From Candidatus Heimdallarchaeota archaeon (lineage in GTDB: Archaea; Asgardarchaeota; Heimdallarchaeia; Heimdallarchaeales; Heimdallarchaeaceae), in the NCBI GenBank assembly GCA_021399395.1, contig JAAFKJ010000162.1, positions 1 through 41,017 on the forward strand: a stretch of DNA of 41,017 nt, in the 5' to 3' direction. Positions 427-37,519 of this stretch are shown here, in pieces. The first letter of the stretch is position 1; every line of letters starts with the position of its first letter. Both the position numbers and the translations under genes were made by a program. Under the pieces are notes generated by a model that worked only from the letters and a program-made list of their open reading frames with translations, searched no databases and had not been told where the DNA came from.

Positions 427-639
427 ATGGTAGTGAAAGAATTTACCTCAGACGATTGGGTAATCAAAATTGACCACGATAAATGTACAGGTGCAGGAGA
501 TTGTGTTGATGTTTGCCCAGCAGATGTTTTCGTATTGGTTGACAGTAAATCTACTGCACCCAACGTTGATGATTGTATAGAATGTTGTGCCTGCGTAGGA
601 GCATGTCCAGTGGAAGCAATAGAACACACTAGCTGCTGA
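427..639 (+). CDS. Dicluster ferredoxin, probably [3Fe-4S][4Fe-4S]
   Basis: Motifs CTGAGDCVDVCP and CIECCACVGACP. ATG at 427 is preferred over TTG at 418. Confidence 0.9.
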   Translation: MVVKEFTSDDWVIKIDHDKCTGAGDCVDVCPADVFVLVDSKSTAPNVDDCIECCACVGACPVEAIEHTSC

Positions 640-1087
640 TCTTGATACCAGCTATCTGTTCAATTTTTTTTTTTGTAACCTTCCTAAATGTAAAGTGTCC
701 TTGAGTACATATTTGTCCATCTTTATTCTTGATATAACTTTTAACTAGAATATCCTTTTCTTTGTGTTCAGCAATTTCTCCAATTATCTCCACTTCTTCT
801 TCTACATACAATGGTTTGAAGAATTGCAGATCTACTTTGATTGTCAAACAAGCTTCCTCCAATAATGTAATTACTGTCCACCCTGATACTTCGTCCATTA
901 ACACTGTCTGAAGCCCTCCATGGACTATTTTCCCCCATCCTCCCCAAGTTTTTGGAACTAAGAAAGACGAACCTACTGACTTGTCTGATAATTTGTAAAA
1001 GGATAATTTCGCACCAATAGGATTTTCTTCTCCACAACCAAAACAAAGAGAATTGATTCCTAAATCCTTCTCAATATGTTCCTTCAT
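629..1087 (-). CDS. PaaI-family (hot-dog fold) thioesterase
   Basis: CFGCGEENPIG and HGGLQTVLMDE motifs typical of PaaI/THEM4-like thioesterases. Confidence 0.85.
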   Translation of the reverse strand: MKEHIEKDLGINSLCFGCGEENPIGAKLSFYKLSDKSVGSSFLVPKTWGGWGKIVHGGLQTVLMDEVSGWTVITLLEEACLTIKVDLQFFKPLYVEEEVEIIGEIAEHKEKDILVKSYIKNKDGQICTQGHFTFRKVTKKKIEQIAGIKISS

Positions 1088-1142
1088 GATATCTTAAAAA
1101 TGGTTATTTCCATTTTACTCTTTTGATAAGACTATTACAGCT

Positions 1143-1442
1143 CTAATCATCTTTTTCTTTAGGTGGAACTGCTAATTTGTAGGCTTTAATTCCTCCTGAT
1201 ATGAGCATAGCTATTCCGCATGCTAGTAATGGAAATAGAATCATTAGCCATCCAAGTAAAAGTGGATCTCCAACCCTTTCTTCAATAGGAATATGAACTA
1301 CACTGTTATAGAACCAAACAAAGAAACCTTCCCAACCAAGCCAAAAGCCTAGTAGAATTAGTAAAATTGCTGCACCACCAACTCCTTTGAAAAGTTGTTT
1401 AAAAAACTCTCTTTTTGTTTCTTGGTTATTTCTGAAACTCAT
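1143..1442 (-). CDS. Small two-TM membrane protein, unknown function
   Basis: Two hydrophobic segments (AAILLILLGFWLGW; LLLGWLMILFPLLACGIAMLI). ATG at 1442. Confidence 0.65.
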   Translation of the reverse strand: MSFRNNQETKREFFKQLFKGVGGAAILLILLGFWLGWEGFFVWFYNSVVHIPIEERVGDPLLLGWLMILFPLLACGIAMLISGGIKAYKLAVPPKEKDD

Positions 1443-1552
1443 ATTCTTCAATGTTCAGAAAAAGTTATTCTTTAAATCTTTTTTGCTCACGTATTATTTA
1501 CACGGTACTAAAAGACAAGCTTTATTTTAGTAGTCCAAATTCGATATTATCT

Positions 1553-2362
1553 ATGTCAAACACTTCTGAGGAATACAAACAGAGAGAATTATTAGATCTA
1601 AATGAATTTAGGTTCTATTACTATATGCCCAACTCAGAAGTGGTGCAAAATGATCTTGGTTACTTTGTTAAGAACAAATCAATTGAAACATACAGTTATG
1701 TTACCCCAGCTTATTTAGGTGATCTAAATTTCGATGACTTCATGAAATTCGCTTTCTCCTACTTTAATAATGGTGAGGAATATTTTGTTGTCAAAATTTT
1801 CTACAATGACACCTTTAACAGAAACTCTAAGATTCTTAGACAACAAAATTTTATTCAATACCCTGTTGATACCTCTTTAATGTCATGGTCAAAAGAGAAT
1901 GGCGATGAGCTTGTTCCTGATCCAGACCTAGAACTTGATTTACTCACATTGAAAAATGCCAAACGATGGGTTGATGTGTTCTTTGATTCGTTTAGCTATC
2001 CTCCTCATCTGAAGAAGTATATCTCTTCAATGGTTGATGAACAGTTGAATCATGGAATAGAGTTTTACGTTGGTAGAAAATTTGGTAAAGATCTCAGCTG
2101 TTTTTGTGCATTTGAGCATGAGAACTTCATAGGTTTCTATGGTGTAGGAACAAGGAAACGTTTCAGAAGGCAAGGTTATGCAAGAAAGACTATGTCTAAT
2201 TATATGTTAGATGCGATTGAGAAATCACCTGATATTCAATTCTGTTTACAAGCTCAAAACAACTCTGGGGCTGAACAACTTTATCAAAATCTAGGTTTCA
2301 AAATTCCATTTACCCAAAAAAGGTTTGACTGGGACCCTTCAACTTGTAATCTAAATCTCTAA
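1553..2362 (+). CDS. GNAT-family N-acetyltransferase
   Basis: Acetyl-CoA motif A VGTRKRFRRQGYA and AEQLYQNLGF. Start MSNTSEE at 1553 is more plausible than 1451. Confidence 0.85.
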   Translation: MSNTSEEYKQRELLDLNEFRFYYYMPNSEVVQNDLGYFVKNKSIETYSYVTPAYLGDLNFDDFMKFAFSYFNNGEEYFVVKIFYNDTFNRNSKILRQQNFIQYPVDTSLMSWSKENGDELVPDPDLELDLLTLKNAKRWVDVFFDSFSYPPHLKKYISSMVDEQLNHGIEFYVGRKFGKDLSCFCAFEHENFIGFYGVGTRKRFRRQGYARKTMSNYMLDAIEKSPDIQFCLQAQNNSGAEQLYQNLGFKIPFTQKRFDWDPSTCNLNL

Positions 2363-4717: not shown

Positions 4718-4788
4718 AATAAGAAAAGTTCGTATCTTTATATCAATTTGGATGTATAAAAAATGAAAAAAAGAGTAAGGTTTAACCC

Positions 4789-13276: not shown

Positions 13277-13435
13277 CAGTGCCTAAATTAAGATGCTATT
13301 TAATGATTTTAAGATTTTTCTATAGCAGTTGCCGATAAAATCCAACTTTAAATATGCATATGGAGTAATATAGCTAAATTAAGCTTATTCCGACATTATT
13401 CTTACATATAATTTAGGGGTAAGATTTCAATCGAA

Positions 13436-13440
13436 GAGGT
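13436..13440 (+). promoter_or_regulatory. Shine-Dalgarno-like GAGGT upstream of the top6B GTG start
   Basis: gaggt lies 7 nt before GTG at 13448. The AT-rich divergent intergenic region has TTTAAAA/TATATAA boxes upstream. Confidence 0.5.
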
Positions 13441-13447
13441 AACAAAC

Positions 13448-16400
13448 GTGTCTGATAATTCTGTTACAAAAAAGATGTCTGCGGCAGCATTTTTCAATGA
13501 TAACCGAGCTATTGCTGGCTTTGGAAATTCCATGAGAGCTGTTTTTACTAGTATTAGAGAATTAGTTGAAAATGGTTTGGATGCTGCTGAAAGAAGAGGG
13601 ATAAACCCCGTTATAGAAGTCGATTTAAGAAAACTGTCCAGTAGAGAAATAAATGAGTTATTGGATGTTACACAGTACAAAAAATTAGAAAAGCATCTTG
13701 ATTTTCTTCAGCTTACTTGTAGAGATAATGGTACTGGTGTTCCTGGACATCAAATCGCAGACTTATTTGGACGAGTATTAACTGGTACAAAATATGGCGT
13801 TATTCAGACACGAGGACGTTTTGGTCTAGGTGCCAAAATGTGCTTATTATACTCTATGTCTTCTGTTGATTTACCCGCAAGAATCAAATCTCGTTATTTT
13901 ATGGATGATATAACAAATGAAATGCATTTAATGATAAATCTTGAAAAGAATGAACCAATTATCATGGAACAAAGAGAATATCTTCCTGGAGATCCCAATT
14001 ACCTAGACGAACCAGGTGTTGAAATCAGTATAACTTTTACTGGCGCTTGGAGTCTTGCTAAAAACAGTGTAAAAGAGTATTTCAGACAATTAGCAATAAT
14101 CACACCTTATTCTACTTTTAATCTCAAAATTCCCGCAGACAAAGAAGGTGAATATGATGAGCTGATTTATGAGAGTGTAGTAGATGACATGCCTGACCCT
14201 CCTGAATATGTTAAAATTCATCCTTGGGGATGTGATATCACACAGTTCAAAGCTGAATTAGGAGCTAATAAAAATAAGAAACTCAAAGGCTTTCTTGCTG
14301 ACCATTTTATGGGAGTAACTGAAGAAATCGCAGAAGATTTCTTCCAACTTCTAGAGATTGACCCTAATAAAAACCCTAAGGATCTTTCTTCAAAAGAAAT
14401 CAGAAGAATTGTACATGAAGGTTTTGTAAAGGCCTATCAAGAAGCTAAAGACATCAAAAGGAAACGGGATAGAGTCTTTCAATTTGATAGTCCGAAAGGT
14501 ACTTCTCTATCCCCATTAGGCGCTGGAAGATTGAGAAAAGGTTTAGAAAAAGAGCTCAATCCAAAATTCGTTGAAGCAATATCAAGACCTGCAAAAGCAT
14601 ATTCTGGTCACCCCTTTATCATTGAAGCAGCTTTAGGTTATGGAGGAGGAGTAAGCGAAGCTGCCCAAACTCGAGGCACTACCGTTCAAGATAACAAAAT
14701 TATTTATAGATACGCTAACCGTATCCCACTTGTTTTCGGTGCAGGAAATGACGTTATAACTCACGTTACTTCCTCTATTAGGTGGAATGAATACGGTCTT
14801 ACCCGCCAATCAGATCCCTTGGCAATTGCTGTTTCCTTGGTAAGCACAAAAATACCTTTTCCCGAAACTAGTAAAGAATATATCTCAATAGTTCCTGAGA
14901 TTGAAGAAGAGATAAGATTAGCACTGATGCAGCTAGGTAGAAGACTTAAAACCTTCCTTAGCAGAGCTAAAAGGAAACGAAGGGAACATGCACGTCTTTC
15001 TCGATTTGTTAAATCAGCTCCTGTCATCGTTGATAATTTAGCTCAAATTTTAGAGGATGAAAATCTTCCCTTAACTGATTTCAGATTTGAGAAAAACAGA
15101 ATAGCTTCTGCACTAGCTCATGGGACGTCGAAAAAGGCAAAACTATTCATGCCTCTGAGTAAAAGGTTATTTGGTTTAAATATCTGGTGTCCTACACCCA
15201 TCCAAAACACTTTGAAATCACGTGGAATTATCTCTATATCTGATTTTCTACTAACACCTACTGAGGACCTGGCTAAGATTCTTGAGATGTCACTTGTTCA
15301 GGTATATAACATCAAACTGAGAACTATCTATGAACTTGATAAAGAAGGATTAAGTCCTGGTTTAGATTCTAAGATTTTTGTTACTAGAGCAATTGAGAGA
15401 AGATTCGATACAAGTGAAAGCAAGCCTTTAATCTCTCTAAAAGATGCTTTAAACAGACGCTGGATTCAAAATAGTTATCACTTCCTAGCAACAGATTATA
15501 GAAAACTTCATTCTGTTTCCGGTTTTGTAGAGAAATTATTTGAGAGCAAGAAAGATGACCTAATAAATCAACTTTTACTAAAGAATAGAAAATCAGATGG
15601 GTCAATCAGAGCAAGTCCATCTTTGAGCGAAATCAACAAACTTACAGGTATCACTCAACTTAAGATAAAACATCTCTTCCCAACCTTCAAAGAATTAAAG
15701 CAGAAGTCTAGTGGCCATCTTTCAGCAGATATGTCAATTGAAGAATTCTTTTATCAGACTCTTCATCCTGGAGAAATAAACTACCAACAAGAAGTTACTG
15801 TTGTACTTGTTGAACATCTAAAATCTGTATTCACTGCACTTTCAAACAAGTTCCCTAACTTCAAGAACACAAGCTTAACCAAAATGAAACCAGATTGGAC
15901 TGATGGATATACAAAAAATGCTTTTCATAGAAGGAAAATAAAGATAGTTGACGATTTTATTACAGGAAATACTGATGACCTAATACTAATTAAAGAAATG
16001 GAGAGACTTCTCTATTCAACATATCTAAAAATGCTTGTTAAGGAATCACCCTCTTCCAAATTGTCAGATTTTGTAATATTTCCACTAAACGAAATGAAGC
16101 CAAAAGAAAGCGAGTTGATTAAGAATCTGATTGCAAAGGGTATCACCACTTTAGCTAAGTTAGTCTATTATACTGCAGACCAGGTAAATCAAACTAAAAT
16201 AAAACAATTAATACCTCTACTATTAGAAGAATCGAAAAGAAAATTAAAACAATCATTAATTGAAAAAGAACATGAACACAGTAGTTCTCATATCAAGATT
16301 ATTCCTGTAAATTTGGAAAAAGAGCTTCTCAAAAATCAAATTTTTAATGCATCAGCATTTCTTGCTTACTCATCTCCTGCTCTAAGAAAAATGGGTTTGA

Positions 16401-19400
16401 AGAAACGTGATGTTGAACGTATGAAGAAAGCACTTGGAACACCTATACCAAATTGGTTAGAACATCAAGAATTAATCAAGAAACTGGGTATAAATACACT
16501 TGAAGAGTTTTTCTTCAACTCTCCTGATGCATATTCTATGACTGCAGATGAGACAAAGAAATATCTAGATATGAGTGTTTTCTTACGTTCCCCAATTACC
16601 TTTAATTTCCCACATCTACGAAATATATCTCACTTAGTAAGAGAAGTTGGACTAAATTGTATTGGGAGATTTGCAATCTGGCCAAATAAAGAATTAGTAG
16701 AAATACTGGAAGTTTCAGAAAACAAGATAAAATCAATGAAAGAAAGTATTTCTATTGCAGATTATCAGACGAATAAAGAGAAGTATGGAATAGATTTCAA
16801 ACAGCTTAAAGGTATTTATCCAAAACTTGTAGAATATTTCGGAAATACAGAACCTACAATTCAAGATCTGTTTTATCTTTATCCCTCTGAAAAACTTCAT
16901 TTCACAAAAGGCTATTGGATTAAAATCGAAAATATAAGCGATCTTTCGCAAATGGAGATCATTGAGTTATCACATTTGTTTGACAAGAATCCCAAGCAAC
17001 TTCCAGCACTAAAAGAAGCACTACTAAGATTAAAAGCACGGAACACAGTCACAATTAAACAATTTTTAGATTTGATTCCTGAGATTATTGAATCAGAACT
17101 AACCAATATTCCTCAAAGAAATGCAGCTCTTGAACTGCATAGAATGTTAAAGACCAGAAAAATAGAAGAAGAAGACGAATTTAGCAAACAAATTCTACTA
17201 ATATGTGAGTTTGATGATTTTCAAAGCGCTCTTGCACTACCCATATCAAGAGTTTCAAAGTTATCCCTTTCAGATTATGAAACCCTAAGGAGTAAGGGCA
17301 TAATTGCAGTTCATCAGCTGTTTGAATACCTTCCAAAGGAGATAGCTACAATTCTAGAAAAAGAAGAACAAGAAATGATTAATCTCTTGAATGATTTCCA
17401 ACTTGAACAACAAGGAACAAACTTCTTTGAGAAAATAGACAGAAATAGGTTTAAATCATTAGTATCTTTTGACTTTGAAGAGTCTGAAAGATTCTCCTCT
17501 CATGAAATTCTATCTTTAGTCCTTGCTGGTTATAATACTGTTGACAAAATCTTCTATCTCGCACAACCAATGATTTTCTCAGCCCCTCTAGTAAATTGGA
17601 ATGTTGTTGATAAATTCAGAAAGTTACTGAGATCACCTTTAACGTTAGTTACTTGGGAGAAAAAGGTAAAGAAGACCATACAAATTGAAGGAGAAGAAGG
17701 AACAAAAACAGTTGAAGAAGATCAAATAACAACTCTCTCAACTGAACAGTTAAGCACACTGCAAAATAACGGTATAACTAGAATAATTGATCTGCTTGTA
17801 AGTCAAGCTGAGAATATTTCTTCCTATCTCGGAATTGGTTTGGATGAAGCAAGGAGCTTCCAGAAGAACATTAGAATTAGTGATACAGGAACTGATATTT
17901 CTGAACTTGACTTATTCAAGACTGAGGTTGTTAAGGCGCTTGAACTATCCAATATTTACACTTTAGAAGATCTTTATTTCTCATCCACTGAAAATAAATG
18001 GGACCATACAATATTACCATGGAGAACAGTGGAGGCATTCAAACAAGTTCTGAATTTACCTCTAAATCACATATCTGATATGCTTGATGCTGAGTTAATT
18101 ACAGCTTTACAAGAAGTAAATGTTCTGACACTTCTTGGATTTATGCTCAGTTCCCCAGAAAGTCTGATGGAAAGGACTGGTATTCCTGATGAACGAATAG
18201 AAAACATAAAACGAGGTCTAGATTTATCAGATATTCTAAGTTATTTCTCTCTACCAAGTTACTTCCTACCCAATCTTACGTTCGAACAAACAGAAATACT
18301 AAGAGATAACAAAATCCAAACAATTGCGGATTTCATATTGAGTTCAAATCAAAAACTTACCAAATTACTCTCGATTCCATCAAAACAATTAGATGAAATA
18401 AAGGCATCCTTAACAGCTCAGAAAATAGTTGAAGTATATGAAGATAAAGGCATATTTGCATTTGAAACAAAGTTATTTGATAAAATGGAACAAAAACAAC
18501 TGAGTAGAGATTCTATCTTCCAATTTGAGAGATTTCAAACAATTCAAGAGTTGTTCTATGAAAGTGATCCTGCATTTTATCAACTAAACCCTGAATTATG
18601 GCCAAAAATATCTGCAGTTCAAAAAATACTAGCTCTTCCACTAAGAATCTTTACAGAGATTTCAGAATATTCTCTGGATGTTTGGGAGCAAAATAATATC
18701 AAGAATGTCTTTCAGTTACTATTCATTCCTGATGAAGATATCACAGATCCTTTACTATATAGATCGGTTTCTTCTAATTCTTCAAAAATGTTAGAAATGA
18801 GATCTTTCCATTTCTTCTCAAAATTACCTTCATCTGTCTATAATAGTTCTTTCTTTGAAAATATTGTTCAAGATTTCGAAAATAAGACATTATCAGATGT
18901 CATAACTGATCCTAAAGTTATATCTCATCTCCTTTCCAAGGATAAACGCTATCAAGCAGAGAATTATAATCTCACGCTAATAAGATCTCTTTTGGAATTA
19001 CCTCTCAGAATCACTCCATTCTTCACACGAATCAAGAAAATTCAGCGCGAAGAGTATACCAATACTAAGATAGGTGACGTGTTTGACATTGATTTAACAG
19101 AACATTCTGGTTTATCTCCCTTCTATAAGAAACTCATGGAAGTTGATTCTTTCAATAGTTTAGTAAAAGACGTTGCAGTACCAATTTCATCTATCGGTCT
19201 TCCTCGAGAAATGGCTCTCAAATTGAGCAAATCATCTGTTAACACATTGATCGATTTCTTCTCTGTACCTGCTCAAGTTCTTTCAGAAATTACTGGATTA
19301 TCCATGAGATATATCAGAGAGATACGAAATAGTCTAAACTACCAGCTGATAGTATCCTTTAGAGCAGAGAAATCACACAAGGTTCTTGAATCTTCAATTA

Positions 19401-22400
19401 TTACACAAAAACAGATTGATCAACTAGCAACATTAGGTTTGACAGATATAGAATCTATTTACTATTCAGCTGACACTCAGCGTATTTCCGACATACTACC
19501 TGTTCAGAACTATCAAAAGATAATGGAAATTCTCTCTGGATCAATTAGGTTTATTGGTTTTCTATCATTTGACGAAATTAAGCGTCTAGAGTTTTATGAA
19601 ATTAACTCTATCATTGATCTGGCTTTGTTAGATAAAAAAGAACTCTTCCATATCACACAAAATCCTATTTACAAAGAATTTCATGCCTTAGATATTCTAT
19701 CTTTGGATGAATTAGTAGATAAGAGAATTGAAGCAGCAATCCCAATCACACTATTGCCCTCTATTGAAGAAGATTATTTAGAGAAAATCAACAAACTTGG
19801 AATCTATTCCATCCAAGATTTTAATTCAAGAATGGCTGAAATAAGAGAATCACACCCCCATCTTGTTAAATTAGATGTTTTCCGCGAAGTACAAATGTAT
19901 CTCGCATCAGTTGCTTTCATAGGATTAACCAATCAACAAGTACAGAAGTTAATCTACTCTGGAGTTGGTGATATTCTCTCCTTTATAACCGAAGATGTTT
20001 CTACAATTGCTCTTATACTAGATATAAGCGAGAAGGATGTAAGAAAGCATATTGATAGGATAGAACCTCTTGCACTTGCACAAGAAGTTAGAAGAAAAGG
20101 AGTAAAAATTGAAGAATTTCCAGTTCTGAAGAAGTCAACTATTAATTATCTCTTAAAATCGGATAAAGAATATGTTCAAGATGTTTATAGTCATTATTAC
20201 CAAGCATTTACAATCACCAATGTCTCTGATGAAGTAATCAAAGATTTCCTTGGAAATTGTAACATTTCGATTTATAGAATAAAAGAAATATCGACTGAAA
20301 CAAAATTACAATTGTCACAAATGGGTGTTCTAAGAATAATAGATTTCCTTTGTGTAAATGATAGTGAATTGAAGAAGGCTTTTGATGGATCTATCCCCAA
20401 AGAAATATCTGAAATAAGAAAAGGGCAGTTTAGTTTAGATAGAGGTACACCTCTGTTACTAAATGAACCAATCAAAGATCTTCTAAGAGACCTCTATTTT
20501 GATCCAGATAAAAAGACTGTAGAGGACCTATTTGGATTTGTTCCTGAACACCTGCTACAGTTTTCAGAATTCGAAAGAATTGAGAAAATCTCAAATATCT
20601 CCTTCGTTGAGCAACTTGTAAGTTTTCTAAGTTTGAGTGTCTTTTCTCTCCCCTATTTTGACATGGATACTAAAGTTGCTCTAAGAAGAAATGGTGTCCA
20701 TCATGTAATTGAGCTGATTTCTACCAAAGTTCAAATGCTGGAAAATTCGAATTCTGAGATAAATAAAAATATTCGTGAATTTCAGAGCAACTTCAATTTG
20801 ACCAAAAGAATGTCTGAAACCTTCAGTCCTCATCTCAACCAAACACTCAATTTATCTAAGAAAATGAGTGAACAGTTCCGAAGTTATGGTTTAACAACAG
20901 GTCTTTTCCTCTTTGATTTTGTTCAGCATCCCCTATTCAATTTTTCAGATAAAGAACAGAAGGTTATCTCGGATATTACCTTTAATTTCTTCCGACCTGT
21001 TTCTTGGTTGTATGATGTTATCGGTTTAGATGTTAAAAATTTCAATCGGTTGATAAGTAGGCAAACAACTAACATTCTATCAGCTCATTTGCTTCTAACA
21101 GAATCAAAATCCAAACCCGAAATTGTAGCATTCCCTTCAAATATCATCTCCAAGTTCAATAAAACTCTCAATGAAGAATTGATTAGTCTCAAACCCCCAG
21201 CTTGGGCTATCAGACTTGACGAGATGAAATTGATTACTGATAGTAAATTCTTGAAGAGACTCAAATCAAGGAAAATAGTATATATTGATGAGTTGATCGC
21301 ATCAGATAGTTTAGTGAATTCAGATACTAAAATTGCACAAGAAATCAGACCTATACTTTACTCTCTCAAGAATTTCAATATCTCTACACTAGACGGATTA
21401 ACTTCTACACAAACCCAAAAACTAATTCAGAATGGTGTTCGTAATGTTCTCCATTATCTCTCACTTCCCGCACCTATGCTAGCCAAAATTACAGGGCAAT
21501 CAGTTGAATCAATTAGAGCAATTATTACTAAAATAGATTTAAACGTTTTAGAAGGAAGTGTCCGATTAGTAGGACTAGATATAGATTTATTCACAGAAAT
21601 TTCTGATAATGTTAAGAATCTTCTGAAGGAATATGGTTGTGTTTCACTCACTCAAGCAGCGAATCTGAATCTTGATCAACTACCAATTTCACATGAAGAT
21701 AGGAAAAGTTTAACACAATTGGTATCTATGCTCTTGACTCCAATTACAATTATTGGGAAAGTATTAAAATTAAGTAAGAAAGAAATTGATGAGCTTCTTT
21801 CTAATAATGTCTTAACTTATACTGACCTTTTAGAAGTTCCTCAACAGAAGTGGTCAGCTAGCATAAAACGGTTGATTTCAAGACAGAAAACAGACCCCAA
21901 TTACTTGATTAAAAGACTACATGATATTGAAAAGTTTGGTGTGTCTATTCAGAAAATAGGTTTAACAAAAGCAGTTACAGAATCATTAATCTCTGCTGGA
22001 ATAACAACAGTAGATCATCTACTTTACCTACCTTCAACACATGTTTCTTCGATAACTAAACTGAAGGAAGATGAACTTGAAGATTTATTAATAAAACTGA
22101 ACTCAAGTCCAAGTCTAATTCCAGGATTTTCAAAAAATATTTTGGTCTATATCTACAGTAAACCTCATTATTCAATAGCAGACTTATTGGTCAATTTCCA
22201 TAACATCTCAAAAGAGAATTTGAAGATAATTCTAGATGGTGTTGACAAAGTAAAGAATGTCGAGGAATTGAAGTTCAAAGATCCTCTTACCACAACTGAA
22301 AAATATATTATTGGAAAAGAGTTCCACTCATATACATCACTTATAACTTCAAAGAAATTTATTGAAGATAAAAAGATATTTTCAAGAGTTGCTCCTTACT

Positions 22401-25400
22401 TACTTGCTAATATTAGGTATCTTGGGTTAGATAATAAAATCGAAGCCGCACTTAAGAGAGCAGGGATTACAACAGTTGCAGATTTACTTATCCTTTCTCC
22501 GAAAACTATAGCGACTCAAGCAAGAACAAGTATTCAGAAAATACAGGAAATTATTATGGCAATCAATGTAGATGATATAAATTCAAAAGTTATTATGAAT
22601 CAGGATTTACATCTCAGAGATGCATTCTTTTTAACTGACAGAGACAAAGAGTTCCTAAAATCAATTGGTGTTTTCAACTTAAACGATTTGAAAGAATACT
22701 CTGTATACTCCTGGATTGTATCTGAAAGCAGGATTGAAACAATAAGGGGAAGAATAGGCTCTATACTTCAAACTCCAATCCTATACTACAAGGAAACTTT
22801 GAAACGACCATTCTATGAAATAGAGAACAACTATCTGTTAAAGGAAATTCATTCTGTTCAAGAGCTAATAACAATTTCAAACCAAAAAGAAGTGGATAAC
22901 ATTACCGAATTTCTTAGAACCTTTTCTGCTTCTACTGAAAAGATAAAAGAGGATTTTGTAACAATTGAGCAAGTATTCAGCGAAGTTGAACTTACTGCTC
23001 TGAACAAAGATCTCAAGATTAAGAAATTAACCTTGTTTAACGAGCTTCTACTTGAAATGTATATTAATTACAAGAAGCTTAGTCCAGAAATTCTCAAGAT
23101 GCTTCAAGTTCTGAAACATCCTCTTTCAGCTTCATCCAAATTTAGTACAAGTGATATTCAAAGCTTGAATTCCAAGAATATTTACACATATATTGATCTT
23201 TTAATTAAACCGATAAGTTACTGGCCTACATTTGCGCCAATCAAACTTAAAACAAAGATAAAAGAGTTAATACCAACTCTTACACTCAAGAAAATTAAAA
23301 GTGATATGACAAAGAGAACTAAGATTTCTTCAACTAAAATCTTTAATCCGAATGTAAAGAAAGTGTTGGGTTCAGCTTACCAAACAGTAGATGAATTAAT
23401 TTTTGAAATAATGGTTGAGAATTATCGCGTTTCTAAATCTGTAATTAACTCGGTTCAAAAAACTTTGACAACTTCTGTTTTATTGGTAAAAATTCCAAAA
23501 ATACCATTAAAAGCATGGAAGAAAACAACCAGCAGTCTAAAGGAAATTGGGGACTTGTATAAGTTATCAAACAAAGATCTTGGATCTATGCTTTCACTAC
23601 CACCTAATGATGCTACAAAGACTATTGATAATTTGACACCAGAAAATATCCTTAACCCACCTATGGTAAAAGCTAACAAAATCTTGTCTTTGAAGGATGT
23701 TGAATTTTTCCATAGTCTTGGAATAAGAAACTTCATTCAGCTGTTGGATGCTATGAAAGTGTCAAATACAATTCCTAAGAACTTGAAGGAGAAAATCAAT
23801 ACTTTAGTTAAACTTGATGTTAAGAAATTAGAACCCAAAATAAATGAATCACTAACATTGATGGAACTACTGTTCTTAAATCCTAATTTATCAACCCTAG
23901 CTATTACTAAATCGCAGAAAGATATTCTTCAAAGAACAGCTGATTTCATGTTCTCTAGAGGAACAGAACTTTGTACTGTTCTAAATGTAGATATGTCCAA
24001 TCGTAAAATCAAATGTCCAGATTTATCTTTAGAGTATCTCTTATTGTTACATAAGTTTGATACCAAATTATATACCTCGATTCTAGGTAATCTTCCTGAA
24101 GAATATTATTCCCAAATAAAAGAGCTCTTTGGATATCTTGAAAGATCACCTGTTATTCTCTCTAAACCAACGTTGGAAAATATCGATCAAATTGCCTCTC
24201 AAGAATTTGAAACAATTTCAGAGATGTTGCTTGAACCCAAAAAATCCCTCTTTAGTGTAGTAACAGATAATACTTTGCAGAGAAATATAAGAAATATCTC
24301 TCTTACCCTTCTCAAGGAACTCAAGAACAACTTCTTAGAATTTCCAGCAAAATTATTTGCTGCAAGTGAATTGAACACTTTGAAACGATCTTCAATCTAC
24401 ACAGTAGAAGAAGCTCTTCTGTTTAATAAGAAATCTAAATCAAAAATTTCAAAAGAATGGGAACTTTGTTCCAAACTAAAAAACATAATGTCGATGGAAC
24501 TGAATGATTTGCCAGCAATGATTGAAAATAAAGAAGCTTTCAATTATGCTGCTAAAAATAAACTAAAGACAATCTATGATTTGTTAGCACACTGTAAGCA
24601 TGGTGCTAGTTCTGAAGTAATATGTCAGGAAATATTACCTACAATAAGATTCGATTTACTCGCTGATTTGATAACTAAAGAGCAACGAAGACTCTCAAAT
24701 TTTGTAAAGGGAACAGAGCTGAATACTATCTTAAAGAAGCATAAGTTGAGCACATTTGGTTCCTTATTTAATTTCATTGAGAAAACAGAATTACAGAATA
24801 TGGAATCAGATTTTGAAAAGCTTCTATCAATCCTCAGAGCTCCTGTATCAATTTTAACAAGTGATAAATCTTTATCAGTAAAACTAAATAAACTTGGATA
24901 CAATCAGGTACTTGATCTCTTACTACCTGCAAATATTAGTAGCATACTCTCTAGAAGCAAATTAACTGATAGGCAGTTAGCTTCAGCAAAGGAAATAGTA
25001 AAGAAACTTAATTTTGTTACCATAAACAGCATTATTACAGCTGACTGTTATCCAATAACTAGTGTTAGTTTTATTGATGACAATATTAAGAAATTATTAC
25101 TAAGAGCAGGATATTCAACAATAACTCATCTAAATATTTCTGATGAAATTCTGATGAAAACATCTGGACTAACAGCGTTGCCACTATCTAGAATTAAGAA
25201 GATATTAATGACACCTTTCTATTATCTTTCAGACTTAACAAGAGAAAATCCTTCAAGCTTGTTTATCTTGTATAACAAGGGGATAAGCATAGTCAGAGAT
25301 ATATTCGTCTCTAACTGTAAGCAACTCTCAAGTCAGTTAGGAATACCTGAAAGACAAATGAAATCCCTTCTTTCCACACTTACAGATCAGTCCATAAAGC

Positions 25401-26020
25401 TAGCTCAAAAGGATGAAACAGATCTGAAACCATCTATGCCGTTTATTGGGAATCAAGAAATTCAAAAACTTGAAGAAGCAAGTATTACCTCGGTTCAAGA
25501 GATAATTTTCCCGACTAATAAAGCCAAGAAATCTTCAGCTCTTACATTGGTTAAAGTTGCTAAATTTGTGCAACATCTAGATAAGAAAATTGAAGAGCTG
25601 GATGTTAAAGCAGGTGTTTTAGTTCAAATAAAACAACTTGGTATAAACAATTTCAAAGAATTTATACTCTATCCGTCAGCTGTTTTGGACAGCAAAGTTG
25701 ACTTAAGTTATATGGCTATTAAAGGTCTAAAAAACAGACTTCCTTTAACTAGCACAAAGTCTTCAGCTGCAAAGAAACCACCATCTAAAGCTAAACCAAC
25801 ACCGAAAGCATCAACTACTAAGAAGACCACTTCTTCAGCATCCAAACCCAAGACTAGCTCTGCAAAAAAACCACCAACAAAGAAACCAGAGCCTAAGACA
25901 GCAAGTTCGAAGGGTACCAAACAAACAACCTTACTAGATATGGGTTCTGATAAAAAGAAGAAAACGTCATCTTCGTCTAAAAGCTCTTCAAAGAGCAAAA
26001 AAAGGAGTAGTGGAAAATGA
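13448..26020 (+). CDS. top6B: DNA topoisomerase VI subunit B with giant (~3600 aa) C-terminal HhH-like repeat extension
   Basis: GHKL motifs RELVENGLDA, DNGTG, TKYG..QTRGRFGLG; transducer motifs YSGHPFIIE, RYANRIPL, KIPFPETSKEYI. Directly upstream of top6A. Confidence 0.95.
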   Translation: MSDNSVTKKMSAAAFFNDNRAIAGFGNSMRAVFTSIRELVENGLDAAERRGINPVIEVDLRKLSSREINELLDVTQYKKLEKHLDFLQLTCRDNGTGVPGHQIADLFGRVLTGTKYGVIQTRGRFGLGAKMCLLYSMSSVDLPARIKSRYFMDDITNEMHLMINLEKNEPIIMEQREYLPGDPNYLDEPGVEISITFTGAWSLAKNSVKEYFRQLAIITPYSTFNLKIPADKEGEYDELIYESVVDDMPDPPEYVKIHPWGCDITQFKAELGANKNKKLKGFLADHFMGVTEEIAEDFFQLLEIDPNKNPKDLSSKEIRRIVHEGFVKAYQEAKDIKRKRDRVFQFDSPKGTSLSPLGAGRLRKGLEKELNPKFVEAISRPAKAYSGHPFIIEAALGYGGGVSEAAQTRGTTVQDNKIIYRYANRIPLVFGAGNDVITHVTSSIRWNEYGLTRQSDPLAIAVSLVSTKIPFPETSKEYISIVPEIEEEIRLALMQLGRRLKTFLSRAKRKRREHARLSRFVKSAPVIVDNLAQILEDENLPLTDFRFEKNRIASALAHGTSKKAKLFMPLSKRLFGLNIWCPTPIQNTLKSRGIISISDFLLTPTEDLAKILEMSLVQVYNIKLRTIYELDKEGLSPGLDSKIFVTRAIERRFDTSESKPLISLKDALNRRWIQNSYHFLATDYRKLHSVSGFVEKLFESKKDDLINQLLLKNRKSDGSIRASPSLSEINKLTGITQLKIKHLFPTFKELKQKSSGHLSADMSIEEFFYQTLHPGEINYQQEVTVVLVEHLKSVFTALSNKFPNFKNTSLTKMKPDWTDGYTKNAFHRRKIKIVDDFITGNTDDLILIKEMERLLYSTYLKMLVKESPSSKLSDFVIFPLNEMKPKESELIKNLIAKGITTLAKLVYYTADQVNQTKIKQLIPLLLEESKRKLKQSLIEKEHEHSSSHIKIIPVNLEKELLKNQIFNASAFLAYSSPALRKMGLKKRDVERMKKALGTPIPNWLEHQELIKKLGINTLEEFFFNSPDAYSMTADETKKYLDMSVFLRSPITFNFPHLRNISHLVREVGLNCIGRFAIWPNKELVEILEVSENKIKSMKESISIADYQTNKEKYGIDFKQLKGIYPKLVEYFGNTEPTIQDLFYLYPSEKLHFTKGYWIKIENISDLSQMEIIELSHLFDKNPKQLPALKEALLRLKARNTVTIKQFLDLIPEIIESELTNIPQRNAALELHRMLKTRKIEEEDEFSKQILLICEFDDFQSALALPISRVSKLSLSDYETLRSKGIIAVHQLFEYLPKEIATILEKEEQEMINLLNDFQLEQQGTNFFEKIDRNRFKSLVSFDFEESERFSSHEILSLVLAGYNTVDKIFYLAQPMIFSAPLVNWNVVDKFRKLLRSPLTLVTWEKKVKKTIQIEGEEGTKTVEEDQITTLSTEQLSTLQNNGITRIIDLLVSQAENISSYLGIGLDEARSFQKNIRISDTGTDISELDLFKTEVVKALELSNIYTLEDLYFSSTENKWDHTILPWRTVEAFKQVLNLPLNHISDMLDAELITALQEVNVLTLLGFMLSSPESLMERTGIPDERIENIKRGLDLSDILSYFSLPSYFLPNLTFEQTEILRDNKIQTIADFILSSNQKLTKLLSIPSKQLDEIKASLTAQKIVEVYEDKGIFAFETKLFDKMEQKQLSRDSIFQFERFQTIQELFYESDPAFYQLNPELWPKISAVQKILALPLRIFTEISEYSLDVWEQNNIKNVFQLLFIPDEDITDPLLYRSVSSNSSKMLEMRSFHFFSKLPSSVYNSSFFENIVQDFENKTLSDVITDPKVISHLLSKDKRYQAENYNLTLIRSLLELPLRITPFFTRIKKIQREEYTNTKIGDVFDIDLTEHSGLSPFYKKLMEVDSFNSLVKDVAVPISSIGLPREMALKLSKSSVNTLIDFFSVPAQVLSEITGLSMRYIREIRNSLNYQLIVSFRAEKSHKVLESSIITQKQIDQLATLGLTDIESIYYSADTQRISDILPVQNYQKIMEILSGSIRFIGFLSFDEIKRLEFYEINSIIDLALLDKKELFHITQNPIYKEFHALDILSLDELVDKRIEAAIPITLLPSIEEDYLEKINKLGIYSIQDFNSRMAEIRESHPHLVKLDVFREVQMYLASVAFIGLTNQQVQKLIYSGVGDILSFITEDVSTIALILDISEKDVRKHIDRIEPLALAQEVRRKGVKIEEFPVLKKSTINYLLKSDKEYVQDVYSHYYQAFTITNVSDEVIKDFLGNCNISIYRIKEISTETKLQLSQMGVLRIIDFLCVNDSELKKAFDGSIPKEISEIRKGQFSLDRGTPLLLNEPIKDLLRDLYFDPDKKTVEDLFGFVPEHLLQFSEFERIEKISNISFVEQLVSFLSLSVFSLPYFDMDTKVALRRNGVHHVIELISTKVQMLENSNSEINKNIREFQSNFNLTKRMSETFSPHLNQTLNLSKKMSEQFRSYGLTTGLFLFDFVQHPLFNFSDKEQKVISDITFNFFRPVSWLYDVIGLDVKNFNRLISRQTTNILSAHLLLTESKSKPEIVAFPSNIISKFNKTLNEELISLKPPAWAIRLDEMKLITDSKFLKRLKSRKIVYIDELIASDSLVNSDTKIAQEIRPILYSLKNFNISTLDGLTSTQTQKLIQNGVRNVLHYLSLPAPMLAKITGQSVESIRAIITKIDLNVLEGSVRLVGLDIDLFTEISDNVKNLLKEYGCVSLTQAANLNLDQLPISHEDRKSLTQLVSMLLTPITIIGKVLKLSKKEIDELLSNNVLTYTDLLEVPQQKWSASIKRLISRQKTDPNYLIKRLHDIEKFGVSIQKIGLTKAVTESLISAGITTVDHLLYLPSTHVSSITKLKEDELEDLLIKLNSSPSLIPGFSKNILVYIYSKPHYSIADLLVNFHNISKENLKIILDGVDKVKNVEELKFKDPLTTTEKYIIGKEFHSYTSLITSKKFIEDKKIFSRVAPYLLANIRYLGLDNKIEAALKRAGITTVADLLILSPKTIATQARTSIQKIQEIIMAINVDDINSKVIMNQDLHLRDAFFLTDRDKEFLKSIGVFNLNDLKEYSVYSWIVSESRIETIRGRIGSILQTPILYYKETLKRPFYEIENNYLLKEIHSVQELITISNQKEVDNITEFLRTFSASTEKIKEDFVTIEQVFSEVELTALNKDLKIKKLTLFNELLLEMYINYKKLSPEILKMLQVLKHPLSASSKFSTSDIQSLNSKNIYTYIDLLIKPISYWPTFAPIKLKTKIKELIPTLTLKKIKSDMTKRTKISSTKIFNPNVKKVLGSAYQTVDELIFEIMVENYRVSKSVINSVQKTLTTSVLLVKIPKIPLKAWKKTTSSLKEIGDLYKLSNKDLGSMLSLPPNDATKTIDNLTPENILNPPMVKANKILSLKDVEFFHSLGIRNFIQLLDAMKVSNTIPKNLKEKINTLVKLDVKKLEPKINESLTLMELLFLNPNLSTLAITKSQKDILQRTADFMFSRGTELCTVLNVDMSNRKIKCPDLSLEYLLLLHKFDTKLYTSILGNLPEEYYSQIKELFGYLERSPVILSKPTLENIDQIASQEFETISEMLLEPKKSLFSVVTDNTLQRNIRNISLTLLKELKNNFLEFPAKLFAASELNTLKRSSIYTVEEALLFNKKSKSKISKEWELCSKLKNIMSMELNDLPAMIENKEAFNYAAKNKLKTIYDLLAHCKHGASSEVICQEILPTIRFDLLADLITKEQRRLSNFVKGTELNTILKKHKLSTFGSLFNFIEKTELQNMESDFEKLLSILRAPVSILTSDKSLSVKLNKLGYNQVLDLLLPANISSILSRSKLTDRQLASAKEIVKKLNFVTINSIITADCYPITSVSFIDDNIKKLLLRAGYSTITHLNISDEILMKTSGLTALPLSRIKKILMTPFYYLSDLTRENPSSLFILYNKGISIVRDIFVSNCKQLSSQLGIPERQMKSLLSTLTDQSIKLAQKDETDLKPSMPFIGNQEIQKLEEASITSVQEIIFPTNKAKKSSALTLVKVAKFVQHLDKKIEELDVKAGVLVQIKQLGINNFKEFILYPSAVLDSKVDLSYMAIKGLKNRLPLTSTKSSAAKKPPSKAKPTPKASTTKKTTSSASKPKTSSAKKPPTKKPEPKTASSKGTKQTTLLDMGSDKKKKTSSSSKSSSKSKKRSSGK
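15200..25740 (+). repeat. Protein-level tandem array of ~40-55 diverged HhH_5/RadA-NTD/alphaCTD-like repeats
   Basis: Recurrent consensus P[IL]xxLxLxxxxxxxLxxxG[IY]xT[IV]xD[LF], e.g. LKSRGIISISDFL, LQNNGITRIIDLL, LISAGITTVDHLL, LKRAGITTVADLL. Count is by eye; no DNA-level identity is visible. Confidence 0.8.
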
Positions 26021-27426
26021 CAGACCAAAATAATTTTACATTCATAAATTCTACAGTATTGCCTGCAACAGAGCGTGAAGCAAGTTTCGATAAAGATATT
26101 CTTACACGTGAGATGTATAACTGGGCAAGAGACACTTTTGATTTGAAAAGAGGTACATATATACTCTTTCTTAGAAGTTCAAAGAAATGGTATCAGCTAG
26201 AGCCAACTAAGAAACTCTCACGCTATCCACTCGAAAAGCAAAAAATGAAAGTTAGTGTCAAGCAAACCGTTCAATTAGATAAAATTGAAGCTTTAAAGGC
26301 TGAACTATTACATAAAAAAGAATTTTTCATGCCATATGGTGTAACTAATGTTGAAACAAAAAATTCACAGGAAACCAATAATCTTCTCGTTGAATATGCT
26401 CTAGATTTCCTTCAGCAAGCAATGGTAAATCCTGCAGATGCTTCCTTCTATATCCCTTCTAGAGGTGGAACTAATGTGGGCTTTGATGAAGAACAAGAGC
26501 TTGTTTTGATAGGTAGACAGATGATTGAAAGACAATTCAGAAGTTTATCTTCTGTAAGTTCTGTTGAACAGATGACTATCATAATGAAGCTAATACACGA
26601 CTTGCTCTCAAGAGATATACATAGTACAAAAAGAGATATTTTCTATATGGATGTAAATTCATTTGAGAAACAGTCTGTCTCTGATTCTCTTGTAGAAGAT
26701 CTTGGTGCTATGTTACAGGTTACTCGCTCTTCCCTAAATGTAAGTGCTTCATCCAAAGGAATTGTTGTTGGAAGAATGAGTTTTAGAGAAAAAGGAGACT
26801 TTATTGACTGCAGTGCTATTGGGGCTGGTAAAGCAATTTCACCCAATATCGACGATATTGAGGATTTTGATACAGATGCGGAAATGTGTCTTGTCATTGA
26901 GAAGGACGCTGTCTTTAACAGATTAGCTGAGGATCAATTTTATGATTATGTTCCTAGTATCCTGATTACAGCAAAAGGACAACCTGATGTAGCAACACGA
27001 CAATTTCTAAAGAAGATAAATGATGATCTTAGTATACCTATTTTTGCCATTATGGATGCTGATCCATATGGATTTGAAATTATGAGGGTGTATAGTGTAG
27101 GAAGTAAAGCTTTGAGTTTTGAATCGAGCCATCTTGCTGTTCCTAATATCAAATGGTTAGGTCTTCTTCCAAGTGATCTTTCAACTGACAGTGGTTTTGA
27201 TATTCCACGAAGTGCTTTACTCAAATTAACTTCTAAAGATATTCACAGATCGAAACTAATGTTAGAAGAAGAATTTGTTCAACGAAAACCAAAATGGAAA
27301 GAACAACTTCAAATTCAGTTAGATAGTGGTTTTAAAGCGGAAATACAAGCTTTGAATGCACGTGATCCTCAATATATTACTAACTTCTATTTACCACATA
27401 AAATAGAGTCTGGGGATTTTATTTAA
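26017..27426 (+). CDS. top6A: DNA topoisomerase VI subunit A (Spo11 family) with N-terminal extension
   Basis: TKRDIFY (catalytic Tyr), IEKDAVF and DADPYG TOPRIM motifs, KAEIQAL. ATGA overlap with the top6B stop. Confidence 0.96.
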   Translation: MTDQNNFTFINSTVLPATEREASFDKDILTREMYNWARDTFDLKRGTYILFLRSSKKWYQLEPTKKLSRYPLEKQKMKVSVKQTVQLDKIEALKAELLHKKEFFMPYGVTNVETKNSQETNNLLVEYALDFLQQAMVNPADASFYIPSRGGTNVGFDEEQELVLIGRQMIERQFRSLSSVSSVEQMTIIMKLIHDLLSRDIHSTKRDIFYMDVNSFEKQSVSDSLVEDLGAMLQVTRSSLNVSASSKGIVVGRMSFREKGDFIDCSAIGAGKAISPNIDDIEDFDTDAEMCLVIEKDAVFNRLAEDQFYDYVPSILITAKGQPDVATRQFLKKINDDLSIPIFAIMDADPYGFEIMRVYSVGSKALSFESSHLAVPNIKWLGLLPSDLSTDSGFDIPRSALLKLTSKDIHRSKLMLEEEFVQRKPKWKEQLQIQLDSGFKAEIQALNARDPQYITNFYLPHKIESGDFI

Positions 27427-27495
27427 ACCTAAAATTCACAGTGTTCATCAATTTATATGAAAAAAATCGGAAAAGTGAGTTACTCTAACTATTTA

Positions 27496-27858
27496 TCACT
27501 TGACTTTTTTCAAGATTATTTCAACTGTTGAGACTGTTTTTGGTGGGATTCCTTCTTCATCTGACTTTATCTCTTCGGAACCGATTATAACATCAGTAAC
27601 TTCAACCATATCTTGTAGAAATTTTCTTCTAGTTATCTCTGCAACATCTACAGCTTTAGAAATTTGTCTTCCACGAGCTTGTATGGAACATTCGTCACTT
27701 TTGTTCAGGATAGTTACTGCAACCAAAACATAGCTAATTGTGTTCTTTTTACCTATGTAGATAATTTGGCTTTGGATTTCGGGTTTCTTCTTTGGAGTAG
27801 TCTTTTTAGCAGGAGCTTTTTTCTTAGTTTTTTCAACTTTAGCTTCTTCTTCACTCAT
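27496..27858 (-). CDS. albA: DNA/RNA-binding protein Alba with basic N-terminal extension
   Basis: IYIGKK, ARGRQISKAVDVAEI and VSTVEIIL motifs. GGTGA SD upstream of ATG at 27858. Confidence 0.93.
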   Translation of the reverse strand: MSEEEAKVEKTKKKAPAKKTTPKKKPEIQSQIIYIGKKNTISYVLVAVTILNKSDECSIQARGRQISKAVDVAEITRRKFLQDMVEVTDVIIGSEEIKSDEEGIPPKTVSTVEIILKKVK

Positions 27859-36376: not shown

Positions 36377-37519
36377 TTAACTTTCACCTACATCGAGTAT
36401 CCCGTCTTGTCCTATCATGAAAACGGTTTCAATTTCTGGGATATGTGGACTGTCAATTACTCTTGCTATTCTCTTCTCTCCTTTACCTTTCCTTAGAAAA
36501 ACTCTAGTTGTACAAGAATGGGCAACGATATGACCTCCAATTGGAAAAACTGTCTCACCATATAATACATCAGGCTTTGAAAGGACTTGATTAGTCGCTA
36601 CTACAGCTATATCATATACTTCTGCTAATCTTAGGAGTTGATGCAAGAACTTGTTTAGTTTTTGCTGCCTCTCGAGTAAGGAATTTCTTCCTGTGAATTC
36701 AGCTCTAAAATGGCTTGTTAAGGAGTCAATAATCATCAATTTTACATTCCCCTCCTTTATAAATTTTGGACTTTCCAAAACTAGAACCATCTGATGATCA
36801 GAATTATATGCTCTACCGACATTGATACGACTTAAGACTTCCTCAGCAGGAGCATTAAATCTGTTACATATTTGCACGATTCTCTCTGGTCTAAACGTTC
36901 CTTCAGTATCTATGTAAATTACTCCAGATTCAAGTCCACCAAGACTTTTTTCCATGGCAGTTGTAACACACAGTTGGAAACAAATCTGAGTTTTACCTGT
37001 TCGAAATTCACCAGAAAATTCAGTCAAAGAACTGGTTTCGATACCCCCCGCAAGAAGAGTATCAAGAGCTTCACTCCCTGTTGATATTTTTACCAATTTA
37101 TTTCGAATTTTTAGAAGCTCTTTTGCACTTTTGAATCCAATACCAATCTGGCTTCGAGATGCTGAAATAAGTCTTTTTGCGGTTTGTTCTCCTATCTCAC
37201 AATGTTCTGCAAGTTCTATAGGTGATGCATGCGCTACTGCTGCTAATGTTAGATATCCCGATGACATCAATTTTTCAGCTACTGCTGGACCAATCCCTGG
37301 AATCTGGTTTACTGCAACATCGCTTAAATCTTCAGTCTTTGGTTTTTTAGCCTGGGTTTTTTTCTGTTTTGGTAATATCTCTTCAATCCAATCTTCTGGC
37401 TCTTTTTTAGGTTTAGCTGTTTTACTAACCTCGTCCTTTGCTTTGGTTGTTGTAGTTGTTTTCTTAACCTCAAGTTGCTTTTCTTTTTTAGGTTTTGGAG
37501 TTTCTTCCTTTTTTGACAT
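36377..37519 (-). CDS. radA: DNA repair and recombination protein RadA
   Basis: HhH N-terminal domain, FKSA polymerisation motif, Walker A GEFRTGKT, YIDTEGTFRPER, IIDS, GGHIVAH. Confidence 0.96.
   Translation of the reverse strand: MSKKEETPKPKKEKQLEVKKTTTTTKAKDEVSKTAKPKKEPEDWIEEILPKQKKTQAKKPKTEDLSDVAVNQIPGIGPAVAEKLMSSGYLTLAAVAHASPIELAEHCEIGEQTAKRLISASRSQIGIGFKSAKELLKIRNKLVKISTGSEALDTLLAGGIETSSLTEFSGEFRTGKTQICFQLCVTTAMEKSLGGLESGVIYIDTEGTFRPERIVQICNRFNAPAEEVLSRINVGRAYNSDHQMVLVLESPKFIKEGNVKLMIIDSLTSHFRAEFTGRNSLLERQQKLNKFLHQLLRLAEVYDIAVVATNQVLSKPDVLYGETVFPIGGHIVAHSCTTRVFLRKGKGEKRIARVIDSPHIPEIETVFMIGQDGILDVGES

Follow-up and report, generated by a model that had tools for sequence, protein, structure and literature searches.

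A giant form of the B subunit of DNA topoisomerase VI (Top6B) is encoded in a 41,017-nucleotide (nt) stretch of DNA from a Candidatus Heimdallarchaeota archaeon (contig JAAFKJ010000162.1; this whole stretch is called the window below), in which a complete catalytic core runs in frame into an arm of about 3,550 amino acids (aa) made of tandem, diverged modules of the (helix-hairpin-helix)2, or (HhH)2, type. Among the type II topoisomerases of archaea, topoisomerase VI (Topo VI) is the main one, and the meiotic Spo11 machinery descends from it; its B subunit has so far been regarded as compact, with about 500-800 aa. The giant is about eight times the usual Top6B length. Judged from its sequence, it is the B subunit of a working Topo VI, with all ATP-binding and transducer motifs kept. 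On balance, we lean toward reading the arm as mainly a structured spacer or scaffold that would tether this enzyme, and not as a uniform DNA-binding rod.

13448..26020, forward strand: top6B, an open frame of 4190 aa counted from a GTG codon
13466..15079, forward strand: Top6B catalytic core, aa 7-544, with GHKL ATPase, H2TH and transducer parts, delimited by NCBIfam models and the 2zbk_B alignment
14492..14992, forward strand: transducer domain, aa 349-515 (Pfam Topo-VIb_trans, PF09239, E 3e-52)

The core, which the initial annotation had described as intact, passed the curated cut-offs of two equivalog models, with 440.5 bits against NF003218 (cut-off 274) and 384.8 bits against TIGR01052 (cut-off 380.7) over aa 7-544. 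Residues 9-543 align without a break to Top6B of S. shibatae (2zbk_B, E 1.7e-83), and the core also aligns to M. mazei Top6B (2q2e_B, E 2.9e-60). The ATP-binding motifs of GHKL proteins are the Glu/Asn box, DxGxG and GxxGxG, and all three stand in register with 2zbk_B (ELVENGLDA/ELIENSLDA, DNGTGV/DNGIGI and GRFGLGAK/GMYGLGVK). In the transducer, the Lys of ETSKEYI sits opposite the Lys of AGKESI in 2zbk_B, which we take to be the switch lysine (K427). The giant therefore resembles canonical Top6B (S. shibatae 2zbk/1mx0; M. mazei 2q2e) in its GHKL, H2TH and transducer core and in sharing an operon with top6A, whereas the canonical solved chains have only 469-621 aa and the giant adds about 3,650 aa past the core. 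A second top6B of normal size was looked for and none was found: the giant is the sole transducer-domain/Top6B match in the 2.8-Mb assembly (201 contigs, 81.8% complete), and two single-contig genomes of the same family (G065 and G104) also have one Top6B match each, in open frames of 4185 and 4305 aa, respectively.

The gene for the A subunit follows directly, and top6B and top6A are encoded in one operon.

26017..27426, forward strand: top6A, 469 aa, with TP6A_N and TOP6A-Spo11_Toprim domains

The end of top6B and the start of top6A share an overlap of 4 nt, and top6A lies directly 3' of top6B in all 25 related loci that have DNA past the stop. With regard to the start of top6B, an ATG at 13475, nine codons past the GTG, is used in the public gene call (P0002; 4181 aa, 100% identical). 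Because conservation among orthologues begins at ..KKMSAAAFF, this ATG is the likelier start and 4181 aa the likelier length of the product. As a separate observation, NCBIfam models align to Top6A (26017-27426) only from about residue 110, leaving an N-terminal extension of about 110 aa.

The giant open frame is real and involves no misassembly. The window sequence is matched by public contigs of two studies, with no indel listed: a 27.9-kb contig, which may be the source sample itself, covers 13300-27500 entirely with two mismatches, and a contig of the second study (1482 nt) covers 14204-15685, including the junction of core and arm, with one mismatch and zero gaps. Among the same-family genomes with a match, 20 of 30 hold open frames of 4140-4305 aa; the other ten have frames of 631-3338 aa, which likely reflect contig ends. 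When individual loci were fetched, 17 of 19 were intact at 4156-4305 aa with the stop inside the contig (two of these 17 come from the single-contig genomes), and the remaining two run off the contig end. A stop codon or misassembly near the end of the core, a concern raised together with the initial annotation, is thus contradicted by the intact orthologues and by the junction-spanning contig.

It is accordingly extremely improbable that the length is an artefact, be it of misassembly, of a lost stop codon or of a top6B gene and a repeat-protein gene read as one. Such an origin would fit one related genome, G034, in which core and arm are out of frame, but it is opposed by the intact fused frame in the fetched orthologues and in complete forms of about 1120, 2293, 2312 and about 3500 aa from other families, by the contig of an independent study that crosses the junction with no indel, and by the lack of DNA-level repeats that could mislead an assembler (no tandem repeats of module size were found at the DNA level in the gene). 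An intein or mobile insertion was rejected as the origin of the extra length, as the extension is C-terminal, colinear in orthologues and built of repeats. In G034 itself (locus L045, G034:C4), the core frame (470..2347) and the arm frame (2320 onward) are offset by 1 nt; the shift lies within an A-rich run right where core and arm meet (2230-2350) and may stem from a sequencing error, mark a recent pseudogene or reflect a natural split.

The repeats of the arm were proposed in the initial annotation together with a fixed motif. The repeats were recovered by methods whose controls were empty or nearly so, while the motif turned out to be looser than stated.

15173..25759, forward strand: arm, aa 576-4104, with at least 37 diverged (HhH)2-like five-helix modules

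A single place, aa 3002, fits the strict pattern L...G[IY].T[IV].DL, and 14 places fit its relaxed form, for which 500 shuffles gave 0.86 on average and never more than 5. A module hidden Markov model (HMM) of 49 columns, built from 77 homologues (consensus LPGLPPEEIKKLKKNGITTIIDFLLTPPEELAKILGLSEEEIEEIKKSI), gave 13-25 matches in the giant (the query protein, P0001) over iterations and thresholds, reaching 25 at an independent E-value of 0.1 or below in iteration 4; 154 shuffled or reversed decoys gave 0-1 matches. For 239 segments of 70 aa from an alignment of 13 orthologues, hhalign against the module profile gave 152 segments with a probability of 50% or more, while none of the 239 column-reversed controls reached this level (maximum 11%). 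These segments cluster into 37 modules between aa 588 and aa 4096, or 42-44 at a cut-off of 15-20%; weak modules beside strong ones may be missed in these counts, as hhalign reports only the best match per segment. Because the modules are spaced by 50-80 aa, or by multiples thereof, along about 3,550 aa, the sequence suggests that the arm holds approximately 55 modules. A self-only iterative HMM, which stalled at 8 modules after its seed had absorbed shuffled matches, was discarded.

The 37-module profile is specific to this gene within its genome, since a six-frame search (E <= 0.01) placed all 37 matches inside the giant gene and none outside it. Against sequences in the Protein Data Bank (PDB), the same profile matched the RNA polymerase alpha C-terminal domain (5.5e-5), RAD51B (9e-4), RadA (2e-3) and RAD51 (5e-3). 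In Pfam searches with the whole protein, RAD51D_N reached a summed 89.5 bits (cut-off 27.3) and RNA_pol_A_CTD 26.2 bits (cut-off 23.8), while HHH_5 remained at 16.7 bits, below its cut-off of 27. Matches to RNA_pol_A_CTD, HHH_5 and TfoX_C fall near aa 2983-3039, and about five modules were individually recognised when the arm was searched as 90 overlapping pieces of 120 aa. Weak matches of such pieces to dynamin-like, Asn_synthase and LBP_M families were all below cut-offs and were set aside as noise. The repeats had also been likened to the N-terminal domain of the RadA protein encoded in the same window.

36377..37519, reverse strand: RadA gene

This likeness holds for the class of fold but hardly for the sequence, since the RadA N-terminal domain matched the module profile weakly (hhalign probability 37%, E 3.5e-4).

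Of 1.84 billion cluster representatives, only 43 match a four-module profile: giant Top6Bs, pieces of such proteins and several weakly matching stand-alone repeat proteins. The latter (P0099, P0100, P0101, P0104 and P0106; 263-806 aa) contain 2-11 tandem RNA_pol_A_CTD-like modules and resemble the arm weakly (E 6e-8 to 7e-4), but differ from the giant in having no topoisomerase or other domain. Most giant Top6Bs have a precomputed match to PF26169, and one of them (P0076, 4099 aa) also matches PF02037. An unexpected fusion was seen in P0097 (545 aa), in which an arm-profile match at aa 367-482 (E 2.9e-10) lies C-terminal to a UbiA prenyltransferase domain (aa 20-195).

The fold of the modules was predicted with AlphaFold2 for two segments, which together comprise about 1,090 of the approximately 3,650 residues of the extension.

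17720..18442, forward strand: modelled segment aa 1425-1665, four consecutive modules
22715..25267, forward strand: modelled segment aa 3090-3940, in the fast-evolving distal arm

The model of aa 1425-1665 (241 aa, 20 orthologues) has a predicted local distance difference test score (pLDDT) of 85.7 and a predicted template modelling score (pTM) of 0.69, and contains 19 helices over four modules, in units of four or five helices. That of aa 3090-3940 (851 aa; pLDDT 88.7, pTM 0.71) contains 60 helices but no strand as long as 3 residues. The best structural neighbours of the first model are RAD51D (9q25_D; Z 8.6 over 61 residues, root-mean-square deviation (rmsd) 2.8 A) and the RAD51C N-terminal domain (8gj9_B; Z 7.8, 64/64 residues), followed by the AF1548 C-terminal domain (Z 7.3), the RNA polymerase alpha C-terminal domain (Z 6-6.8), NusA AR domains (Z 6), Rad51 (Z 5.9), SAM domains (Z 5-5.8) and Methanopyrus Topo V (Z 5.0 over 100 residues). 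For the 851-aa model, nearly every structural alignment fell on a single module, residues 778-838 (aa 3867-3927), which matches RAD51C (9svx_C) with Z 8.8 and rmsd 1.6 A over 56 residues; Topo V reached Z 4.5. According to the alignment tool's own warning, Z values under about 8 are common for helical folds. Foldseek gave no match to the PDB at E <= 0.001 for either model; for the 851-aa model, Topo V occupied ranks 1, 4, 5, 7 and 18, all non-significant (best E 0.087, TM-score 0.09).

Since the RAD51-paralogue matches at or above Z of about 8 cover whole domains and agree with the sequence profiles, a five-helix (HhH)2 / RAD51 N-terminal-domain-like fold is accepted as the predicted fold of the tested modules, in line with the helix-hairpin-helix nature first proposed; for the remaining modules, the same fold is extrapolated from the hhalign matches and the pattern of helices. 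Single modules would therefore share the five-helix fold of the N-terminal domains of RadA/RAD51 and the RAD51 paralogues and of the alpha C-terminal domain, but these domains occur once per protein, whereas dozens are found in tandem in the giant.

A survey of Top6B length across Asgard genomes, in which f1-f20 are family labels, revealed that a giant arm is not peculiar to one genome but occurs across the class, graded by family, and that the sequences are already in public databases, where the entries of all relatives bear the plain name 'DNA topoisomerase VI subunit B'.

f1 (the family of the giant itself): 4140-4305 aa
f2: at least 4244 aa, running to the contig end
f3: 3473-3587 aa
f4: 3573 aa
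f5: 2312-2346 aa, including a single-contig genome
f20 (same phylum, other class): 2286-2293 aa
f7: at least 1323-1359 aa, cut by contig ends
f6: about 1110-1155 aa, with a second copy of about 500 aa in 8/9 genomes

The lengths across the class thus fall into grades of about 1120, 2300, 3500 and 4200 aa, while other Asgard Top6Bs among the matches listed have about 400-680 aa (284 weaker matches lie beyond these). According to the names in the source records, the closest relatives are Heimdallarchaeaceae, the forms of about 3500 aa belong partly to Kariarchaeaceae, and those of about 2311 aa belong to Hodarchaeales, including 'Candidatus Hodarchaeum mangrovi'. The arm is colinear among these proteins: a Hodarchaeales protein aligns with aa 9-2318 of the giant at 27.7% identity, and the 3500-aa forms align as far as about aa 2000-2125, the distal half of the arm being lineage-specific and the fastest-evolving part. 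In the short f6 form there are six modules, which are basic and have canonical hairpins (PGVGP, KGLGA, PGMGK and KGLGV), and for this reason the arm probably started out as an (HhH)2 array of the usual DNA-binding kind that later grew and degenerated. One further locus (L039, G231:C93; family f27) has a 1353-aa frame that extends far upstream of the core and ends soon past the transducer, with no arm modules; its extra length is either an N-terminal extension or a non-coding open frame.

The occurrence of the arm was also compared with that of DNA gyrase. GyrA is encoded in the host genome and was found in 26/26 genomes of f1, 1/1 of f2, 8/9 of f3, 3/3 of f4, 18/19 of f5 and 2/2 of f7, and in none of the nine genomes of f6, the family with the short-armed copy; within the class, a long-armed sole Top6B occurs only in families with GyrA. 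In many f5 and f7 genomes, which are of the Hodarchaeales type, gyrA precedes top6B by about 2 kb on the same strand (for example, G226:C1 4657199-4661141 and G248:C296 12612-16610), while in the window's own family the two genes are far apart or on separate contigs. A different feature of gyrA is that the profile matches are split within one frame, into profile positions 1-93 and 92-431 in G000 (contig C45, about 4047-6680; L033/L034), G008, G065, G104 and others, or into 1-41, 39-93 and 92-431 in some genomes, with open frames of 939-1726 aa; from this pattern, GyrA looks like a carrier of one or two inteins.

Whether so many modules could all bind DNA was judged from their hairpins and charge. 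G-h-G hairpins contact DNA phosphates, and in the giant they are nearly absent: the hairpin Gly is kept in 5/37 first and 8/37 second hairpins, and a single G-x-G was counted in 26 HMM-defined modules. The long arms in general keep 0-1 G-x-G in 7-26 modules, whereas a form of about 1120 aa has 4 in its 6 modules. The mean module charge is -0.38 in the giant versus +3.2 and +2.0 in two short forms, and lies between about -1.4 and +0.4 in the long arms generally. The arm as a whole is near-neutral (net +18 over 3555 aa), and in most homologues of 2300-3600 aa it is net negative (-15 to -123). The charge profile is conserved in 20 orthologues. The core-arm junction (aa 501-600) has a mean of +11 and is positive in 20/20 of them; mild positive patches follow in the proximal arm (aa 801-1000) and in the distal third; and aa 1200-2200, the best-conserved stretch of the arm, is acidic, with 0-2 of the 20 orthologues positive in all but one bin. 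An invariant T-G-I-P-D-E-R hairpin is found at aa ~1577-1583. The protein ends in a basic tail.

25748..26017, forward strand: polybasic C-terminal tail, aa 4101-4190, rich in Lys, Ser, Thr and Pro, net +24

The tail has a mean of +20.7 and is positive in 20/20 orthologues; it reaches +20 to +41 in most complete forms of 3500-4300 aa and is weak in those of about 2311 aa. These features bear on the original proposal of a type IIB topoisomerase with a very large DNA-binding or scaffolding arm: its enzyme core and HhH-like array are borne out, but DNA binding by the whole array is disfavoured by the few remaining hairpin glycines, the near-neutral total charge and the acidic middle.

An arm working in the manner of Methanopyrus kandleri Topo V, in which most or all modules bind DNA without sequence preference and the arms wrap, bridge or slide, is therefore a possibility that we regard as doubtful. 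It would provide processivity, salt tolerance or a preference for DNA crossings, similar to the C-terminal domains of GyrA/ParC in type IIA enzymes. RadA/RAD51, LigA, Pol X and Topo V bind DNA through the same (HhH)2 type of fold as that of the modules, and Topo V is also the first-ranked, though non-significant, Foldseek neighbour of the 851-aa model; moreover, the basic modules and canonical hairpins of the forms of about 1120 aa indicate that the ancestral arm probably bound DNA, and the junction, the tail and, mildly, parts of the proximal and distal arm are basic in the giant. The long arms, however, have lost nearly all canonical hairpins, their modules are neutral to acidic with net negative arms in most homologues of intermediate length, and the best-conserved part of the arm is acidic. 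Topo V itself is likewise a topoisomerase followed by a long tandem array, of 12 (HhH)2 domains (PMC9489208, PMC4838376). It differs from the giant in its catalytic domain, which is of the unrelated type IC and not a type IIB Top6B core, and the array of the giant, with 3-4 times the number of modules, is not basic and retains few G-h-G hairpins.

It is unlikely that the SAM-like/HhH-like modules polymerise, arm with arm or arm with partner, and so place Topo VI in a chromosome-axis or segregation structure. The polymerising or pairing SAM domains of SARM1, tankyrase and Eph receptors are among the structural neighbours, the middle of the arm is acidic and conserved, and a length kept within a few per cent in the family (4156-4305 aa) would fit a structural ruler. 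Nevertheless, the Z values of the SAM domains (5-6) are below those of the RAD51 paralogues (8.6-8.8) and in a range common for helical folds.

The scaffold or spacer reading is somewhat favoured because the hairpin glycines are lost, the middle is acidic and conserved, and the predicted order is high. The arm leaves the C-terminal end of the transducer, and in solved Topo VI structures this end adjoins the A subunit and the DNA gate. As the alignment with Top6B of the solved Topo VI complex extends over the entire core, the usual A2B2 enzyme is expected, which would carry two arms flanking the DNA gate. The basic junction and tail, and perhaps the mildly basic patches, would contact DNA or chromatin, while the acidic conserved middle (aa ~1200-2200) would more likely bind proteins. 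Gyrase may handle bulk supercoiling in Heimdallarchaeia, and the arm could then tether or position Topo VI for a specialised task beside gyrase, such as decatenation or chromosome organisation. The high pTM values of both models would fit modules that pack on one another.

Several points weigh against the scaffold reading. DNA binding can persist in HhH-like domains whose hairpins are degenerate, the alpha C-terminal domain being one example, and a subset of modules with a conserved hairpin, for example T-G-I-P-D-E-R, could do so here. The pTM of a repeat array modelled from a 20-sequence alignment may overstate rigidity, and the models comprise less than a third of the extension. The choice between scaffold and DNA binding was judged by sequence features, and no RNA run was found among the listed public holders of the gene. 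With respect to gyrase, the gyrase-bearing lineages are related, so that few independent events underlie the pattern, and arm length was compared with gyrase within the class only.

A bolder form of the scaffold reading, which we consider improbable, would give Topo VI, in the class of archaea nearest to eukaryotes, a structural role in the chromosome beside its enzymatic one, with two semi-rigid arms, the polybasic tails on chromatin and the acidic middle on partners, at loop bases or at the segregation apparatus. By an uncomputed estimate, two arms of about 55 modules per heterotetramer could span a sizeable fraction of the cell. If true, prokaryotes would have an equivalent of the scaffold role that has been proposed for topoisomerase II in eukaryotes, and it would have evolved stepwise (about 1120, 2300, 3500 and 4200 aa) after gyrase took over supercoil control.

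Extensions of Top6B have been reported before. In the accessible part of Villain et al. 2022 (PMC9348778), Top6B of gyrase-encoding Asgard archaea is said to be extended past the transducer by 'a globular domain', and co-evolution of this extension with gyrase is proposed; the class-level gyrase counts given above agree with that proposal. That part of the article describes a globular extension, and neither thousands of residues nor HhH repeats; its supplementary figures S11 and S12 lie outside the comparison. The same source mentions an Ig-like C-terminal domain of about 100 aa in M. mazei Top6B. There is no room for such a domain after the transducer of the giant, in which the core ends at aa 543 and the first module is aligned from aa 588 (probability 98.3%), so that the first helical module in hhalign begins about 40 aa past the core. 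In the literature search, no description was found of a multi-thousand-residue or HhH-bearing Top6B, the supplements (Villain S11/S12, the PMC12680538 text and bioRxiv) being outside the search; in one supplement of PMC12680538, Top6B appears only in tables. In agreement with the initial annotation, the giant HhH-armed architecture thus apparently remains undescribed in print. As the sequences are already public, the novelty is the recognition and analysis of the architecture.

The sole Top6B found has about 4,200 aa in Heimdallarchaeaceae, about 3,500 aa in their Kariarchaeaceae-labelled relatives and about 2,300 aa in Hodarchaeales, and most of it is repeat arm. Because these lineages are the closest known archaeal relatives of eukaryotes, the joining of strand passage to a giant putative scaffold bears on how the organisation of chromosomes gained complexity before the origin of eukaryotes. 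The graded forms also offer a natural series of arm lengths for testing what tandem HhH-like arrays do. A warning follows for phylogenomics as well, since marker sets that include Top6B trim off most of this protein.

In addition to the topoisomerase genes, several eukaryote-like genes typical of Asgard archaea were observed in the window.

4789-5928, reverse strand: tubulin/FtsZ-family GTPase
29805-32755, forward strand: Ras-family small GTPase overlapping a 784-aa HEAT-repeat protein
38137-39048, reverse strand: RING-finger protein

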